Assembly (NCBI GenBank): GCA_014905635.1 | Contig: JABVCE010000010.1 | Span: 248,001-312,000, forward strand | Reading direction: 5' to 3' | Source of the DNA: Scenedesmus sp. PABB004 | Lineage: Eukaryota | Length of the DNA: 64,000 nt | Shown: one piece after another, positions 26,937 to 35,661 of the stretch | Layout: each line of letters starts with the position of its first letter | Numbering within the stretch: position 1 is the stretch's first letter | Translations under genes and position numbers: made by a program | The notes under the pieces: generated by a model | The model's input: only the letters and a program-made list of their open reading frames with translations | The model's database searches: none | Told to the model about the DNA's origin: nothing

Positions 26937-27334
26937 CGCGCGGCGGCGGCGTCGCGCGTTAGAGTCGAGCGGCGCGCAGCTGCGCGTGCTGGCGTGCGTG
27001 CGGGCTCTGGGCGCAGCGGTGGCGGGTGCCATGTGAGGGGGGCACAGCGGGCGGCCTTACGTGCTGCGGCGGCCGCGAGCGTGACGGCCGCGGTTTGGAC
27101 GCGACGCACCGCCGCCGGGTGCACCTGCCTGGCCGCCGCTGCCCCCCGGCGCGGACTGTCCGCCGCCGTCCGCGACGCCGTGGCCTTGCCGGCCGTCCCG
27201 GCATCCCTGCTCGCCGCCGGCCCTCTCTGCCGCCGCCGACATCACTGCTCCCGCCGCCCCGGCCGCCTCGCGGCCCGCCTGGCCGGCCCGCCGCGCCTCC
27301 CAGAGAGAAGGGAGCGACACACACCCGCGGCGCC

Positions 27335-27803
27335 ATGGAGCTTCCCGAGTCCCAGCGCCGGTGAGGCGCGGCGCACCGGAGCAGCGCCGGCGGCCGCCGC
27401 CGCCGTGGCGGCCGCCGCCGGCCCGCCCGCCGCCGTGGCGCCGTGCCGGCGCGCTTCGACGGCCGCCGCCACCGCGCTCGCCGACGGCCGCCGGGCGCCG
27501 CGCTCGCCCCGCCGCCACGCAGGGGGCGGCCGCTGAAGCAGGCGATCACGGAGTGCCAAGTCCGCTGGTTCCACGAGACGCAGGCGCTCGCGAACGAGGG
27601 CGACAGCGCGCAGATGGCGCTGCTGGGGCACATGCTCAACGCCGGCTACGGCTGCACCCCCGACGCGCAGGCGGCGCAGCACTGGTTTGGCGAGGCGAGC
27701 CGGCGGCTCGGCTACAACGTGCTGACCGACCAGCCGCCGCTCATGTGCGCGCCGGGGCCGGCGCCGCCGCCGCCCGCGGACGCGCCCGCGGCGCAGCAGC
27801 AAG

Positions 27804-28669: not shown

Positions 28670-31600
28670 TCACATGAACAACGCGGCTGCGTCACAGCGC
28701 GGGTCGGCGGGGGCGTCCACCGCCAGCTCCAGCCCGCGCGCGCGTGACGCCGCGACCAGCGCGGCGGCGCGCTGCGGGCTCAGCAGCTCGTCCGCGTTGC
28801 CGGCCAGCAGCAGGCACTGCAGCGCAAAGCCGTCGCCGCCGAACTTATCCCACAGCTCCGGCACCGCGCCTGTGAGGGCATTGCCGTCAAGTGCCAATAT
28901 CTGCAGCCGCCGCATGCTTATGTAGGTCGGCGGCAGACCGCCGGCCAGCGCGTTCCGCCCGGCGTCCAAAATGCGGAGCGCAGTGAGCGTCGTGAACACC
29001 GTGGGGAGCGGGCCAGACAGCCGGTTGCCGTGCACGGCCAGCACCTGCGGCGCGGCGGGGTGCAAAGGTGGGGCCAGCTGCAGGCGCGCACGAGCGCGGC
29101 GTGCCGGCGCAGCCCCCACCTTCAGCCGCCTGAGCGTCGCATATTCAGGCGGCAGGCTGCCGGTCAGTGAGTTGTTGCTCAGCACCAGCTCCTGCGCAGC
29201 GGCGGTGGGAGGGGCTGGCGGTCGGGGCCCCGCTCGCGAGCAGCCGCGCGGCCGCACAGCCCCAGCGTTCAGGGCCTAAACCCCGCCCGCGCAGCCCCCG
29301 CACCTGCAGCCGCGTGAGCTTTGCATACGCGGCCGGCAGCCCCCCGGTGAGGCCGTTGCCCTGCAGCCTCAGCACGCGCAGCTGCAGCATGCCCAGCTCC
29401 CCCGGGGGAGCAGCAGCCGCCGCCTCGAACACCGTCGCCGCCGCGCGCTGCGCCACGGCCGCGTGCTGCGAGGCCGCTGGCGCCACGCCGGCGCCACCGT
29501 CGAGCGGGCCAGGCCAGGCGCGGCGGCCACCCGCGGGCACGGTGCGCCCGCTGCTGGCGGCGCTCGCCGTTGCTGCATGAGTGCCCGACGCTGCCAGCGC
29601 ACGGATGGCCAGCGCGTCGGCCCACTGCTGGGGCAGCGGCCCGGACAGCGAAGCACCGCTGAGGTCCAGCACCTGCAGATTCGAGAGCAGGCCCCACTCC
29701 GGTGGCAGGCCGCCCGTGATGCCGGGGCAGCCTGTGGCGCGCAGCTCACGCAGCTGCTGCAGAGCTGCCCACACCGGCGGCAACGGCCCGGCCACGCCGG
29801 TGCGCGACACGTTGACAGCGCGCAGCGCGGGGAGGGCCGCCCAGGCAGCAGGCAGGGCACCAGTGAGGCCGGGGTTGTCTGTCAGGTCGAGTGCCTCAAG
29901 ACGTGCAAAGCCAGCCACGCCGCCGCGCTCGCCGCCGCCGACGTCGCCGGCCAGGCCGAGCCCGGCCAGGCTCAGCGCGCGCAGGTTGTCGAGGCCGCTG
30001 ATCGTGTCCAGCAGCACCCCGAGCTGCAGCGGCTTTGCCAGCGCGCCCAGGGGCGCCAGGTCGAGCCCTGACACACGGTGGCTCGCGTCGCAGCTGACGC
30101 CGGGCCAGGCACGGCAGTAGCGCGGCGGCGTGCTGGGGCCTGCGGCGGCGGCGGTGGCGTGTCAGGGCCTGGAGCGCATGTGCACGGCACATGTGCACCT
30201 GTGCTCCAGCACCCACTCGCGCAGGCGTCGCTCTCCCTGCCCTCCCTCCTCACCCGCGCCGCCCGGGTCAGATGTGTTCCAGGCGCCCAGCACGTCAGCG
30301 TCGCCGCCGGCGGCCAGCAGCTGCGCCTTGAGCGCGGCCAGCGCCGCCACGTCTGGGAAGTCGGGCGTCGCGCACGGCGGCGCCCAAAACAGCCGCCCGT
30401 CGCGCGTCCTGCTAGTCACGAGCAGGCCACCGGGCGCGCAGACGTCTGCGTCGACGCCCGTGCCATCAAGCGCGACTGCGCCGACGCTGAACCGCGCCCA
30501 CGAGAGCGGCACGTCGCCGACGATGCCGCTGTTGTTGACCAGGAAGGTGTTGAGGCCCGGCGGCATCACCGCTGCGCTCCCCCACTCGGGGGGCAGGCCG
30601 CCCGTGAGCGCGTTGCCGCTCAGGTCCAGGGACGCGAGCGTCGCCATGCCGGCGCCCCACTCGGGCGGCAGGCTGCCCGTGAGCGCGTTTCCGTCCAGCC
30701 AGACCTGCTTGACGCTGGCCCACCCGCCCCACGCCGCAGGCAGCGGGCCTCTCACGCCGCTGTGGGACAAGGAGAGCTTCATCAGGCGCGGCGCCGCGGC
30801 CGCGAGCCCGGGCGGCAGCGCGCGGTCGCGCGCCGGCAGCTCGGCGGTCAGCGCGCGTGCGCCGCTCTGGTCCAGGTACAGCGTCTCCAGGTGCGGCAGC
30901 GCGCGCGCCAGCTCGGGCAGCACGGTGAGGTTGAGCGCGAGGCCTGCGCCCATGACGTCGACCACGTACTCTGCAAAGTTGATGGACGCGACGCGAAAGT
31001 GCAGCGTGCCCGGCCCCTCATGCTCCATGGTCGCGAGGTAGGCAGACTCCTGCTCGCTGCGTACGAGCCGGCCCAGGTCGGCGACCGTGCCCAGCGCACG
31101 CGAAATGAGGTCGTCGTAGGCACCGGGCGCGCCGTCCGCGACGCCGCCGCTCAGCAGCGCGCGCGGCAGCAGCGCGCCCAGCGCGCGCAGCTGCGCCGCA
31201 GCGACGTCGCCGGCGTCGGTCGCGCACAGCCCGACCATGCGCGTGCCGCTGTAGGTCAGCTGGAGTGCCGGGGAGAGGGGCACGCAGCCCGAGAGCTGCC
31301 GGTTGCCATCCAGCGCCATCTCGCGCAGCGAAAAAAGCTTGGCAAACGTCGCCGGGAAGTCTCCCTGCAGCCGGTTGGCGCTGAGGTCGATGCTGTGGAT
31401 CGCCCTGAACTCGCTCCAGCGCCGCGGAATGTCGCCGCCGAAAGCGTTGCGCGCGAGGTTCAGCGAGCGCAGCTCGGGCCAGGCGGGCAGTTCGACGCTG
31501 AGCCGGCCGCCCAGGCGGTTGCCGGAGAGGTCGAGCGACGCAAGGCGGCTCCCCGCGCCGCGCGCCGTCCAGGCGCGGGGGATGCCGCCGCTGAGCCCGC

Positions 31601-34177
31601 ACGCGTCGCCCTGCGGGTCGACAAAGTTGGCCGCGTCAATGGGCGGCTTGATCTCCACGTCCGTCACGTTGGACCACGACGCCAGCAGCTGCTCCGGCAG
31701 CGTGCCGGTCAGGCAGTAGGCGTTTACCAAAAGTTTCCGCATGTGCCGCAGCGCGCCCAGCTGCGGGGGCAGCTCGCCGCTGTAGAGGACCAGCGTGAGA
31801 GTCTCCAGGTTCTCAAAGCCGAGCAGCGCCGCGGCCAGGTCGGGGGTGAACGACGGCAGCATGGTGGCCTGCACCTCACCTGCCGCGACGGGGGCAAAAA
31901 AGAGGTCCACCACGGTGTGTGGCGCCCCAGGGGTGCAGTGCACGGCCAGCTGCAATTGGGTACCCCTGCAGAGCGGTGCGGCGCGTTGGCCGCCGCGGCG
32001 CGCTGCACCGAGGCTGACAACGCGGGCGGGGCCGCGCTGCCACGCACGGCACGTCCAGGGGCGTGAAGCCCCAAGCTTGTCCCGGCTCGTTGCATTGCAG
32101 GAAGGGCAGCTCCGCGCTGGCACCCAGCCCAAGCGCAGACATGAGCGCCCGCACAGCGTTGGCCTCGCTGTCGGGCATGGCCATGGCGCGCTCCGCGTCG
32201 GTCCACTGGGGCTCGTCCAGCATGTACGCCACGCGGTCAAACTCCGCAAAGCTGCCCCAGGCCGCGTTGCACACGCGCAGCGCCGCGCCGGCGGGCAGAG
32301 CGGCGGTCACGTTGACGTCCTGGAGGTGCAGGGCGCACCCCACCACGCCCTTGGCCGTGCACGCGGCGTTGCCCGCGCCGCTGGGCTCGGCGCTGTCGCA
32401 CACCACGTCGGTGGCGCCGCCGGTCGCGTCGTACGCGGTGCAGTGGAAACGCGGCGCCGCCGCGCCCGACATGTCTGTGCCGGCGGCCACCACAGCAATC
32501 GCGCGCGCCATCTCTTCGCCGCGCAGGGTGAGCGGGAATCGGTAGACAACGTCGCTGACCTGCCCGGTCACGCCGACATTGTCCCTCACCAGCGCACGAA
32601 TGTCAACCTTAAAGTGGTCGGCCAGCGCAGCCACCGTGTCGCCGGGCTGCGCGGTGTAGGTGACGCAGGTCGGCTCGTTGCGCACCGAGGTCACGGGCTT
32701 GCGCCGGGCGCGTGCGTACGGGCGCTCGCCGTGCATGTTGCCGGGCCTGCCGGCCGCCGGCTCGCACGCCAGGGCGTAGGTCTTGTCGGGCGTGCCGATG
32801 CCTACGTGCACGCAGGGGTCATGTGCCCAGGCCGGGGCAGGTGGCGGCTGGTCAGCGGCCAGCTGGTGCCGCTAGCTGTCCCCCCCCCCCCCGCGCCCGG
32901 CCGCGCGCCAGCGCCGCGCCAGCTCCGCCGCCTTGAGCGCCCCCGGCGGGCGCGCGCCGCCTCACCCAGCAGCCCCATGCTGACGCGGGCGAGGCCGTCC
33001 GCGGTGACGCCGCCGCGCAGGTGCTGCTGCTGCGGGTCGGCGCCGGCGCCCCAGCTGTTGAGTATTGTCCACGTGAAGTCTTCGTTGTTGTACCCCACAA
33101 TCACGGCGGCGTGTCCGAAGAGCGCCTTGGCGGAGGCATTGAAGCGGTACGGCGGCGCCGCCAGGCCGCTCACGGCGCGCAGGGAGCTGTTGAACTGGAC
33201 CTCCCAGTCGTCGGGCACGATGATCCGTGTGATCGCCGCGCCGCTCTGCCGGATGTGGGCTTGGATCTGGTGGAACGAGCTGAGGCTCTTGTAGGTACAG
33301 CGGTAAAGCGGCCGCCCCCGGGCAATGTCCCGGCAGCTGCGGTCCGCCGAGTCGGCGCTCGCCGCGGCGCACGTGGGCGCCCAGTCGTCCACGTCGGGCT
33401 CTTCAATGGGCTGCAGCGCCGCGAGCGCGTGGTCGAAGCAGTGCGCGGGCAGGAGCCACTGTGGGTTGACCTCGAGCCGCGACAGCGCCGGCGGGATGTC
33501 CCAGCCCGTCTGGCAGGTGCGGCCGCCCCTGCACGGCGGGGCGGCGTGCGGTCGGTGTGCGTGTGTGTGTGGGGGGGGGGGGTGCCAGTGTGGATGCCCC
33601 CGCCCTCTCCCCCCTCCCTCTCACTGCAGGCAGTAGTAGAGCGCAAGGGGCGACACCTCCACCTCGGACGCATCCACGTCCAGCGTCTGCGCAAGGCTGA
33701 TGGTGGCCGCCGCGGCGACCGCCTGCCCCACGCACGACGCGCACGAGCGCTGGTTGAGCGGCGCCGGCAGGTAGCTGCGCCGGCCGGGCGTGTGCGTGGC
33801 GTTGGAGCTCTCGTACTTGAGGGGCGAACCGGCGATGTAGTAAGCGGCCGCCTGCAGCTGCTCAAAGTCGCGCAGTGAGCCAAAGCCGCCCAGCTTGCTG
33901 ACGCCCGTGCCGCCCCTGCCGCGGCCGCGGCCGCCCAGGCCGGCGATCCCTGCGCGCGGCGGCGGCAGCGGGCCGTCGTCACCCGCCGGAGGCGTCACCC
34001 GCAGCGCCGCTTCCCGGATCGCCGGAGCTCACCTAGGGCGTCCTCGAACTCTTCAAAGGCGGATGCGGTCGCTGCCGCGCTCGCACCTAGGCTATCGGCG
34101 TCGACAGCCAGCCCCTGCCCCTGGACACGCGCAATCGCGGTCAGAATCACCGCCAGCAGGAGAACAAGATGTCGCAT
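28670..34177 (-). CDS. Secreted multidomain protein: papain-like cysteine peptidase (C1A) + LysM + multiple LRRNT/LRR modules
   Basis: Signal peptide MRHLVLLLAVILTAIARVQG; NQRSCASC, GHAAVIVGY, LNSWG; LysM CVTYTAQPGDTVAALADHFKVDIRALVRDN; many LxxLxLxxNxLxGxLPxxW repeats; exons join in frame via GT-AG introns. Confidence 0.85.
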
Positions 34178-34580: not shown

Positions 34581-35661
34581 TCACACCCAGTCGTCATCGA
34601 GGCGCCCGCCCTCACCACTCGCGCTCGCGCCGCCGCCAGCGCCGCCGCCGGCGCCGGCGAGCAGCCCCGCGGCGCCCGCGAGCGCCGCCGCCGCGCCGCT
34701 GGCGGCGCCGCCGCCGCTGCTGAACGATGCCGCCCGGTGCATGAACGGGCTGGGCGTGAGCGCCGCGGCGCCGGCGGCCGACGCCGCGTAGCGGCGCTCC
34801 CACAGGCCGCCGAGGAACTGCTGCAGCGTGTCCCAGTCGAGCGCGCCCGTCGCGGCCGACGCGCTGATGCCCTTGACGTGCTGCGCCGCCATCTCCGGCG
34901 CGAGGCTCGCCTCCGACGGCGCGCGCCGGCCGCGCAGGCCGCCGAGCAGCCCGCGCTGCCACCAGCTGCCGCAGCCGCCGCGCGCGAGCGCCTGCGCGCA
35001 CGCGGCGTTGATGATCGCCGGCAGCGCCGCGGCGCCGCCGCCGGCGCCGCCGGCGCTCGGGCGCAGGCGGTCGGCCTTGTTCCCGACGACCAGCACCGGC
35101 ACGGGCAGCCCGCCGATGTTGCGCGCGGCGAGCTCGTCCGCAAACGGCGCGACGAAGCTGCCGCCGCGCGCGACCTCGGCCGCCCAGCGCGGCAGGCGCG
35201 CGAGCGAGGCGCGCGAGGTGAGGTCATAGACCAGCACCACGCCGTTGACCTGCCGGTAAAACACGCGCCGCAGCGCGCCGTACTTGGGCTGCCCGCTGAC
35301 GTCCCAGAGCTCCACGAAGAAGCGCCGCGCCGGGTCGGCGCCGGCGCCAGCGCCGCCGGGGCCGCCGCCGCTGGGCGTGTCGACCAGCTTCACGTGGATG
35401 TGGCACCCCGCGGTCGACCGCGACGACTTGGCCGGCGCGCCGTTGGCGATCAGCTCCGTCAGCGCTGACTGCGCGAGCGGCGGCGCTGGCGGCGGCGGCG
35501 GCGCGGCGGCTCGGCTGCTGCCCCGCGCGCGCGCGCCGCGCCAGGCTCGCCAACGCGGCGCAGCGGCGCGCCTTGCCGACGCCCGGCTCGCCGACCACGA
35601 CCACGCGTATGCTGCCCAGCAGCGGCTCTTCCGGCGCCACGGGCTTGGTGGGCAGGAACAT
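34581..35661 (-). CDS. LIP1: Small GTPase LIP1/RABL3-like
   Basis: RVVVVGEPGVGK|S, FFVELWDVSGQ, GGLPVPVLVVGNKAD, all resembling plant LIP1. Confidence 0.85.

Follow-up and report, generated by a model that had tools for sequence, protein, structure and literature searches.

Does one algal gene join a secreted papain-like protease, a LysM and several blocks of leucine-rich repeats (LRRs), and what might such a protein do? The question is raised by the minus strand of a 64-kb window (the whole stretch of DNA analysed here), where a sequence-only reading had proposed this architecture. Papain proteases, LysMs and extracellular LRRs are separate in land plants, but would form a single chain here. 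Aphelid infections crash Scenedesmus cultures, and to our knowledge parasite recognition and defence in single-celled green algae are poorly characterised.

The spliced gene model occupies 28670..34177 on the minus strand, as do all features described below, and comprises eight exons (34177-34033, 33949-33625, 33528-32966, 32801-32048, 31965-30254, 30139-29304, 29191-29120 and 29044-28670). The seven introns are all GT-AG and measure 75-164 nt; the spliced coding sequence of 4782 nt has a single stop and encodes 1593 amino acids. GC3 is 0.83-0.93 in exons 2-8 and 0.67 in exon 1. No TGTAA poly(A) signal was found around the gene, but there are just five in the window, making this result uninformative. 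The 64-kb window contains no second copy of the gene. The model is collinear in one piece with P0012 (model residues 248-1586), P0011 (18-1468), P0014 (66-1552) and P0015 (1-1534); relatives that align with the whole model come from Tetradesmus and Scenedesmus.

The protease-LysM frame is connected to the LRR frame by intron 4 (32047-31966; 82 nt, canonical GT-AG), and this dependence on an intron raises the concern that two neighbouring genes were fused by a faulty splice model. In keeping with that concern, the public models P0001, P0003 and P0010 stop after the LysM, and some public family models carry extra, unrelated N-terminal domains that resemble merged neighbours. Nevertheless, we consider a fusion of two genes hardly credible. 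P0140, an 873-residue single frame that matches model residues 331-1167 and spans introns 3 and 4, is unbroken at the position of intron 4. Transcriptome open reading frames from Tetradesmus deserticola (P0016) and Enallax (P0142, 'complete') extend from the head into the cap or LRRs, as do the Logan frames P0032 and P0046, and the LRR frame lacks a signal peptide of its own. Judged from the relatives that align over the whole length and from their unbroken frames across the protease-LRR junction, the predicted Peptidase_C1 + LysM + LRR architecture in a single gene is real. Intron 4 ranked first among 37 in-frame, stop-free GT-AG choices scored against the family profile, but its lead is narrow (127.1 versus 125.3 bits), so that the exact protease-LRR junction is not fixed. 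Another candidate, 32052-31880, was dropped, as it breaks the frame.

The protein begins with a predicted signal peptide (aa 1-20; 34118..34177), a hydrophobic N-terminus followed by the QG start of the family, from which the relatives align. The putative propeptide (aa 21-88; 33831..34117) spans intron 1 and was delimited using subfamily motifs and the predicted model of P0016, in which the corresponding segment superposes with zymogen propeptides. Its conserved GGRGRG..RG loop is present in 13/13 subfamily sequences, none of which has an ERFNIN or GxNxFxD (GNFD) motif (0/13), and Pfam scans of family members revealed no I29 domain. Lacking an I29 propeptide with ERFNIN/GNFD, the gene product is, by its sequence, not of the cathepsin L/H/F-like plant protease type represented by Rcr3 and RD21.

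The C1A papain-fold protease domain (aa 89-358; 32761..33830) contains introns 2 and 3 and was assigned from its catalytic motifs, the family profile and the fold of P0016. Gln, Cys, His and Asn occur in papain order (Q115, 33752; C121, 33734; H296, 33113; N314, 33059) and were matched to the protease II motifs through a profile. The codons for the last three lie within one base of the positions claimed previously (~33733, ~33112 and ~33058), and the claim that Val replaces the usual Trp after the catalytic Cys is correct; this is in fact the family norm, found in 58 of the 89 proteins with an intact Q/C/H/N set. The NSWG motif is intact in the gene product and across the subfamily. The spliced model matches the family protease profile with 8.9e-97. 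Pfam Peptidase_C1 (PF00112) gave no match on the window's single exons at E<=0.1, and scored above its cut-off in 10 of the 12 close relatives scanned. The papain fold was judged on the predicted model of P0016, which is 36% identical to the gene model over 556 columns. This model resembles 1xkg (pro-Der p 1; Z 19.3, rmsd 4.7, 243 residues aligned), 5vpk (Z 19.0, rmsd 2.7, 211 aligned) and xylellain (Foldseek, 1.5e-7); matches in the ESM Atlas were to generic C1 clusters alone (0.80-0.84). Together, the hydrophobic N-terminus and complete catalytic set point to a secreted C1A peptidase, as had been proposed. No transmembrane (TM) helix follows the signal peptide (best 19-residue hydropathy, 1.46), none of 105 family proteins reaches 2.0 after the head, and the earlier view that TM helix and kinase are lacking holds. 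The absence of a C-terminal TM helix excludes an LRR-RLP/RLK identity.

The LysM is split. Its first half (β1, α1, α2; aa 390-424, from C390; 32563..32667) is recognised by the family LysM profile (iE 4.6e-12) and in the predicted model; Pfam PF01476 matches it at E=0.0017 with 18.7 bits, below the cut-off of 20.9, and covers positions 1-29 of 43. The second half (loop and β2; aa 507-522, to C522; 32269..32316) scored highest of 1581 protein windows for a profile of intact LysM tails (16.6 versus 7.5) and is included in LysM structure alignments over model positions 43-179. The Pfam match is partial and sub-threshold because the LysM is interrupted and ends at 32269, not at 32580 as claimed; the claim of a LysM fold itself stands. 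The Cys-to-Cys span around the domain is 133 residues here and 127-159 in 13 sequences, compared with 49-68 in 17 intact relatives. The predicted model of exon 4 shows the β-α-α-β LysM fold, and its top structural matches are LysM-containing chains, with 47-60 residues aligned, middling Z-scores of 4.0-6.0 and rmsd of 1.7-2.7 in the cleanest cases; Foldseek with this model found no match at E<=0.001.

Between the two halves, in the α2-β2 loop, lies an insertion of ~82 residues (aa 425-506; 32317..32562), predicted with pLDDT 82-96 and containing conserved Cys465, Cys479, Cys492 and Cys500. What had been read as a Cys-rich linker would thus be mostly a folded domain in the second ligand-binding loop of the LysM. 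The insert has no Pfam match and, from the exon-4 model, resembles no known fold clearly (the top structural match reaches Z 4.4, HMA-like rows 3.5-3.6); we propose that it is folded, without claiming a new fold. Its predicted β-α-β-β-α-β order is that of ferredoxin/HMA-like folds. The first LysM loop, GDTVA, is retained. In the Ecp6 LysM, the α2-β2 loop is one of two chitin-binding loops, and a lone LysM is expected to be a weak (micromolar) binder (PMC3700227, excerpt). Since the insert occupies a ligand-binding loop, binding of chitin or peptidoglycan cannot be assumed; by analogy, the insert may alter or abolish binding of GlcNAc. A LysM accommodating an entire domain in a ligand-binding loop is relevant to the evolution of LysM specificity, and the split bears on why algal LysMs are undercounted by Pfam.

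The remainder of the protein consists of three plant-type LRR blocks with 17 strict LxxLxLxxNxLxGxLP repeats in total and matches to Pfam LRR_8/LRR_1. Block 1 (aa 555-843; 31224..32172) contains four strict and several divergent repeats behind a degenerate cap that is of low confidence in both predicted models. Block 2 (aa 850-1127; 30372..31205) has four strict repeats and a degenerate, Cys-free cap. Block 3 (aa 1196-1593; 28673..30053) is preceded by an N-cap (aa 1133-1195; 30054..30356, with intron 5 inside) and comprises four repeats, an Ala-rich island (aa 1341-1418; 29618-29385), five repeats and a Cys-bearing C-cap, without a TM helix. Three blocks had been claimed, each with an LRRNT cap; the blocks are there, but the N-cap is canonical only in block 3 (iE 1.1e-7 with a profile from six relatives). 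Caps 1 and 2 do not match this profile, and PF08263 matched none of the window pieces. Exon 6 matched GSO1 (3.8e-50), PGIP (4.3e-11) and the FLS2 and MIK2 ectodomains in the PDB.

The gene does not represent a lone architecture, as had been thought. A paralogue and taxon survey places it, by sequence, in a large, expanded family in which the C1A-LysM head is constant and the tails are interchangeable. Every named member belongs to the Sphaeropleales, with no Chlamydomonas or Volvox name among the named sequence matches. The 105 family proteins, which include the window model and near-duplicates, comprise 68 with a LysM, 20 with at least two LRRs, 17 with both and none with a TM helix after the head. 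Many stop directly after the LysM; the tails are LRR, C-type lectin, fibrinogen-C, PLAT, Kazal and BTRD1, which are typical binding modules. In a quick protease tree of 94 rows, from which six duplicates and 108 rows that were short or partial had been removed, LRR tails occur at several places, and the algal family is separated from 16 bacterial and I29-type rows with a support of 99. Neighbouring locus tags suggest tandem copies in Tetradesmus, Chromochloris, Monoraphidium and Scenedesmus. The Q/C/H/N set is intact in 89 of the 99 proteins spanning all four sites (outgroup C1A included) and lost in ten, such as P0061, P0068 and P0096. Five close paralogues from Tetradesmus share 89.5% identity in the propeptide and 81% in the protease, compared with 59% for the first LysM half, 64% for the insert and 57-68% for the LRR blocks; at polar positions, close Tetradesmus paralogues are 77% identical in the protease versus 51% in the LRRs. 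Hypervariability of the concave LRR face was not significant (43% versus 51% identity at other polar LRR positions; permutation p=0.08, eight strands). The faster divergence of the surface modules is compatible with relaxed selection, too. A metagenome scan with exon 3 returned a single locus, L001 (E=8e-7 over 67 residues), which is presumably an RNA polymerase gene on the opposite strand and was dismissed as a chance match.

The explanation we favour, while giving it slightly less than an even chance, is that the gene encodes a secreted multidomain zymogen whose modules would hold the protease on the surface of parasites or microbes in defence. After secretion the propeptide would be cleaved, probably at the flexible Arg-Gly loop; the LysM with its insert and the LRRs would anchor the enzyme on walls or secreted proteins of aphelids, chytrids or bacteria; and the anchored protease would cut proteins nearby. 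The tails would provide the address and need not switch the enzyme on, and across the family a constant head would be paired with varied recognition tails. We count in favour the binding-module tails, the lack of TM helices (0/105), the probable tandem copies, the scattered LRR tails, the mostly intact catalytic set (89/99), the surface modules diverging faster than the protease and the pheromone induction of a Volvox C1A protease, described below. Also in favour, infection of Graesiella by Amoeboaphelidium up-regulates, among others, genes with LRR, lectin and LysM domains, although these are not tied to the C1A-LysM family (PMC8657485, excerpt). Counting against are the insert in the binding loop, the non-significant concave-face variability, the weak binding expected of a single LysM and the lack of any mention of peptidase or cysteine in the Graesiella text.

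Besides defence, the other leading function is wall remodelling. The LysM with its insert and the LRRs would then bind glycoproteins or amino-sugar polymers of the alga's own wall, and the protease would either weaken the mother wall when autospores are released or shape colonies. Scenedesmus walls contain amino sugars, and the protein is predicted to be secreted without a TM helix; the binding-loop insertion could retune the LysM toward a self glycan, and cprA is counted among the extracellular matrix enzymes of Volvox (PMC5704591, excerpt). We regard this function as possible but doubtful, as many diverging paralogues with shuffled lectin, LRR and Kazal tails would seem to exceed the needs of a housekeeping hatching enzyme.

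Quite unlikely, in our judgement, is a gated sensor, in which a ligand on the LysM, insert or LRRs would free the protease to release a signal peptide or cut a receptor, as if Rcr3 and Cf-2 were combined in a single chain. The high conservation of the propeptide among paralogues, the ten members with lost catalytic residues (expected of decoys), the domain insertion as a natural means of coupling two domains, and the action of Rcr3 as a co-receptor of Cf-2 (PMC5014320, excerpt) would all suit such a device. However, without a TM helix or kinase in 105 members there is no direct path to a signal; many members end after the LysM, so the head does not need tails; PLAT, Kazal and LRR tails are too dissimilar for a common allosteric interface to be likely; and plain tethering accounts for the anatomy equally well. 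Nutrient scavenging, in which the enzyme would bind microbial debris and free organic nitrogen, is slightly less likely still: a putative secreted protease with glycan-binding modules and the expansion of heterotrophy genes in Scenedesmaceae (PMC13315243, excerpt) are compatible with it, but three LRR blocks appear too elaborate for bulk digestion. We give next to no credence to a catalytically idle adhesin or a decoy for parasite protease inhibitors, for although Val replaces Trp after the catalytic Cys and dead members exist in the family, the gene product, like the rest of the subfamily, retains the catalytic residues and NSWG, and no other folded domain is as well conserved as the protease.

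The targeted defence protease invites a bolder, and unlikely, extension: that the Sphaeropleales possess a receptor-free extracellular immune arsenal, made up of secreted proteases that number in the dozens, keep the C1A-LysM head fixed and shuffle their recognition tails. The new domain that the Scenedesmaceae branch carries in the LysM ligand loop would act as a built-in sensor or decoy, and a ligand bound by this domain or by the LRRs would activate the zymogen at the parasite surface. The family supplies named, testable candidates in the culturable Tetradesmus obliquus and Chromochloris zofingiensis.

The sequence-only reading knew of no characterised protein with this architecture. For its C1A + LysM half, five architectures are already listed for Chlamydomonas (Zhang 2009, PMC2728734; Van Holle and Van Damme 2019, PMC6362431 Table S3). 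Compared by description, these share with the gene product the combination of C1A and LysM in a green alga, and some carry galactose-binding, SRCR, WSC or C-type lectin domains; they have two or three LysMs and no LRR (0/5 C1A rows), whereas here one split LysM is followed by three LRR blocks. None of the literature searched (most subscription papers, MEROPS and the InterPro architecture lists lay outside its scope) describes the LRR tail, the exchange of tails within the family or the split LysM, and no paper there joins cysteine protease, LysM, leucine-rich repeat and green alga. PMC12571836 held no relevant terms, and the text and one supplement of PMC9343445 nothing relevant. In their available parts, PMC13315243 treats NLRs and subtilases, not this family, and PMC12757656 describes protease domains in chlorophyte RLK ectodomains without mentioning papain.

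Several modules resemble better-known proteins. Xylellain, cathepsin B and pro-Der p 1 share the papain fold and propeptide position, but are only ~16-20% identical, have CW in place of CV and differ in that the gene product lacks an I29/ERFNIN propeptide. Volvox cprA/VcPap-11 (Amon 1998) is reportedly modular and wound-induced, with an extensin-like spacer, three chitin-binding repeats and no LRR. Likened by description, it too is an algal C1A protease outside the cathepsin B/F/H/L groups, a matrix enzyme induced by the sex pheromone; the title of a paper cited there has the same genes triggered by wounding (PMC2474614, PMC5704591, excerpts). The LysM of a Volvox chitinase (PDB 5k2l) aligns over 49/49 residues with the predicted model (rmsd 2.2, 35% identity, Z 5.4), but the match is spread over 135 residues here because of the ~82-residue insertion in the second binding loop; the flanking pair C390/C522 is the same as in intact family members. 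Repeat type and N-cap are shared with the plant extracellular LRRs of GSO1, FLS2, MIK2, PGIP and TMK1, the last of which also has internal LRR caps; differences are the absence of a TM helix or kinase (the protein would be soluble, as is PGIP), the three blocks and the protease fusion. Finally, tomato Rcr3 and Cf-2 bring a papain-like protease and extracellular LRRs into one recognition system, but as two proteins, of which Cf-2 is anchored in the membrane and signals; here both elements are predicted to lie in a single soluble chain with a different propeptide.

The gene at 34177-28670 (minus strand), in eukaryotic sequence of 69-87% GC, can be joined from eight exons and seven GT-AG introns (75-164 nt) into a frame of 1593 residues with a single stop. 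The catalytic codons lie where the sequence-only reading had placed them. The only delicate step of the gene model is intron 4 (32047-31966), which links the reading frame of protease and LysM to that of the LRRs; its donor and acceptor are normal, and it ranks first among 37 possible in-frame joins, by a margin of less than 2 bits. Upstream, at 34581 to about 35900 (minus strand), lies a gene for a small GTPase of the Rab/Ras type (Pfam Ras, 8e-11; Roc, 2e-7), with its stop about 400 nt ahead of the protease ATG. A downstream ORF of 228 residues (26959-27645, minus strand) contains a helical, Sel1-like-looking stretch and poly-Gln, and has no Pfam match at E<=1.

That protease and LRR parts of two genes were wrongly joined is unlikely, judging from related sequences. 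With exon 3 as the query, 14 proteins of 329-2000 residues were found in Tetradesmus obliquus and Scenedesmus spp., ten of them with LRR Pfam domains. Four of the longest relatives align with our spliced translation in one piece (1340-1530 residues, 30-37% identity), although these are gene predictions and could share a prediction error. P0140, a single frame of 873 residues on a Logan contig, aligns at the protein level with residues 331-1167, unbroken across introns 3 and 4, and stops where intron 5 sits. The head of the protein (propeptide and C1A-LysM part) also continues into an N-cap or LRRs in transcriptome ORFs of Tetradesmus deserticola (P0016) and Enallax costatus (P0142), and in Logan ORFs of 923 and 827 residues on contigs of 3.2 and 4.5 kb. 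Collinear relatives, the P0140 frame and these ORFs thus support the proposed single chain of protease, LysM and LRRs, and we conclude that the architecture is real. The exon 3 match to metagenome locus L001 (positions 1-800) was rejected as chance; on its opposite strand this locus appears to encode the beta-prime subunit of a bacterial RNA polymerase. Five public models (P0004, P0008, P0011, P0012, P0015) carry extra GNAT, WD40, PD40, LRR-like or ClpN parts before an internal signal-peptide-like or QG start, and are probably fusions of neighbouring genes.

Single exons of the window gave no match to Pfam C1, and 10 of 12 relatives pass its cut-off. An AlphaFold prediction for P0016 (pLDDT mostly 84-97 across the protease domain) matches papain-fold proteins with Z of 15-19. 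Zymogen structures align with it from residue 21-45, those of mature enzymes from about 101-112, which makes the conserved segment behind the signal peptide a probable propeptide. ERFNIN and GNFD motifs are absent from this region in 13 sequences, all of which contain an Arg-Gly loop, of low confidence in the P0016 model, that is a plausible candidate cut site. The Val that follows the catalytic Cys is usual in this family. One or more catalytic residues are missing in 10 of 99 members; the P0061, P0068, P0096 and P0028 group, with Cys, His or Asn lost or Asn changed to Ser, may be pseudo-proteases or decoys.

The Pfam LysM match covers only the first 29 positions of the domain, and the missing tail was located about 85 residues downstream (best of 1581 windows). 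The LysM reported earlier is therefore present, but not contiguous. In intact relatives its Cys-to-Cys span is 49-68 residues, P0028 scoring 38.4 bits on PF01476; shorter insertions occur in other members (spans of 55, 63 and 68 residues). Modelled without templates (33 sequences; pLDDT 82-96 over residues 31-190), exon 4 has the order beta1-alpha1-alpha2, insert, beta2, the insert being beta-alpha-beta-beta-alpha-beta with four conserved Cys. LysM structures top the list in a structure search, with about 50 residues aligned across model residues 43-179, including all 49 of a Volvox chitinase LysM; Z values are modest (4-6), in keeping with the domain's small size. In the predicted structure the insert is located in the loop between alpha2 and beta2, a loop that touches chitin in Ecp6 (PMC3700227). 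The insert itself has no Pfam match and no clear fold match. P0001, P0003, P0018 and P0183 end within the split LysM, directly behind its first half, and may be truncated models, contig ends or a genuine short isoform.

The tail contains 17 strict plant-type LRR repeats. Three blocks were found as predicted (4, 4 and 4+5 repeats), but only the third has a canonical N-cap. An Ala-rich island divides block 3, as in P0012, P0015 and P0048; at 29385-29618 (minus strand), five repeats from the block's end, it is variable in sequence with conserved flanks, in a position similar to that of the island in plant receptor-like proteins. The C-terminal end is polar and contains Cys, and, as noted before, there is no TM segment.

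Named relatives of the gene are all green algae of the Sphaeropleales. At E<=1e-10 the head profile has 282 matching representatives, and at 0.001 it has 838 (best 150 examined); the weaker matches probably include ordinary C1A proteases. Algal names among 30 proteins looked up were Tetradesmus, Scenedesmus, Enallax, Hariotina, Monoraphidium and Chromochloris, and one distant match was the bacterium Micropruina; none was Volvocales, weak evidence with few names given. Pfam scans of 43 + 18 selected long members revealed tails of LRR, C-type lectin, fibrinogen-C, PLAT, BTRD1, Kazal, PSI and RCC1-like repeats. Counted over 105 members, near-duplicates and fragments included, LysM is present in 68 (profile built from 17 sequences), LRRs in 20, both in 17 and TM segments in none. 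In a quick tree our protein falls within a 19-row clade (support 100) that contains the long-insert forms and whose named members are all Scenedesmaceae; P0132, P0140 and P0048 are too partial for placement. LRR tails occur in further branches too, and so the tree indicates repeated gain or loss of tails. A recent Chromochloris expansion (P0040, P0043, P0174-P0181, P0184) combines near-identical heads (74-82% to P0043) with BTRD1, Kazal or no tails, and is the cleanest system for studying tail swapping. P0170, a 1999-residue model, spans the head profile roughly twice (757 columns) and also has lectin, fibrinogen-C and Cys-rich repeats; it may join two genes of a tandem pair.

Every functional step is inferred: the protein would be secreted, lose its propeptide and carry out tethered proteolysis at a surface chosen by LysM, insert and tail. 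We tentatively favour a role in biotic conflict, at somewhat under even chances, because the family has expanded, with apparent tandem copies and shuffled tails, and because its binding modules diverge faster; a test of whether the LRR concave face is hypervariable fell short of significance (p=0.08), which counts against it. Action on the alga's own wall is a less likely alternative. True ligand gating, the sense-and-cleave idea, is possible but improbable and without support, as many family members have no tail and none has a TM segment.

The C1 and LRR domains of these proteins are already annotated in databases. In the literature within reach, neither the LRR fusion nor this family nor a split LysM was found described; the greatest interest lies in the split LysM and in a family that swaps its tails. 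C1A+LysM is recorded for Chlamydomonas (PMC2728734; PMC6362431 Table S3), and according to PMC2474614 a pheromone-induced Volvox C1A is the sole algal member with physiological data. Unlike our protein, none of the five Chlamydomonas rows in Table S3 includes LRRs. In Rcr3/Cf-2 (PMC5014320) a papain protease works together with an LRR receptor that is a separate protein, whereas here protease and LRRs share one chain.
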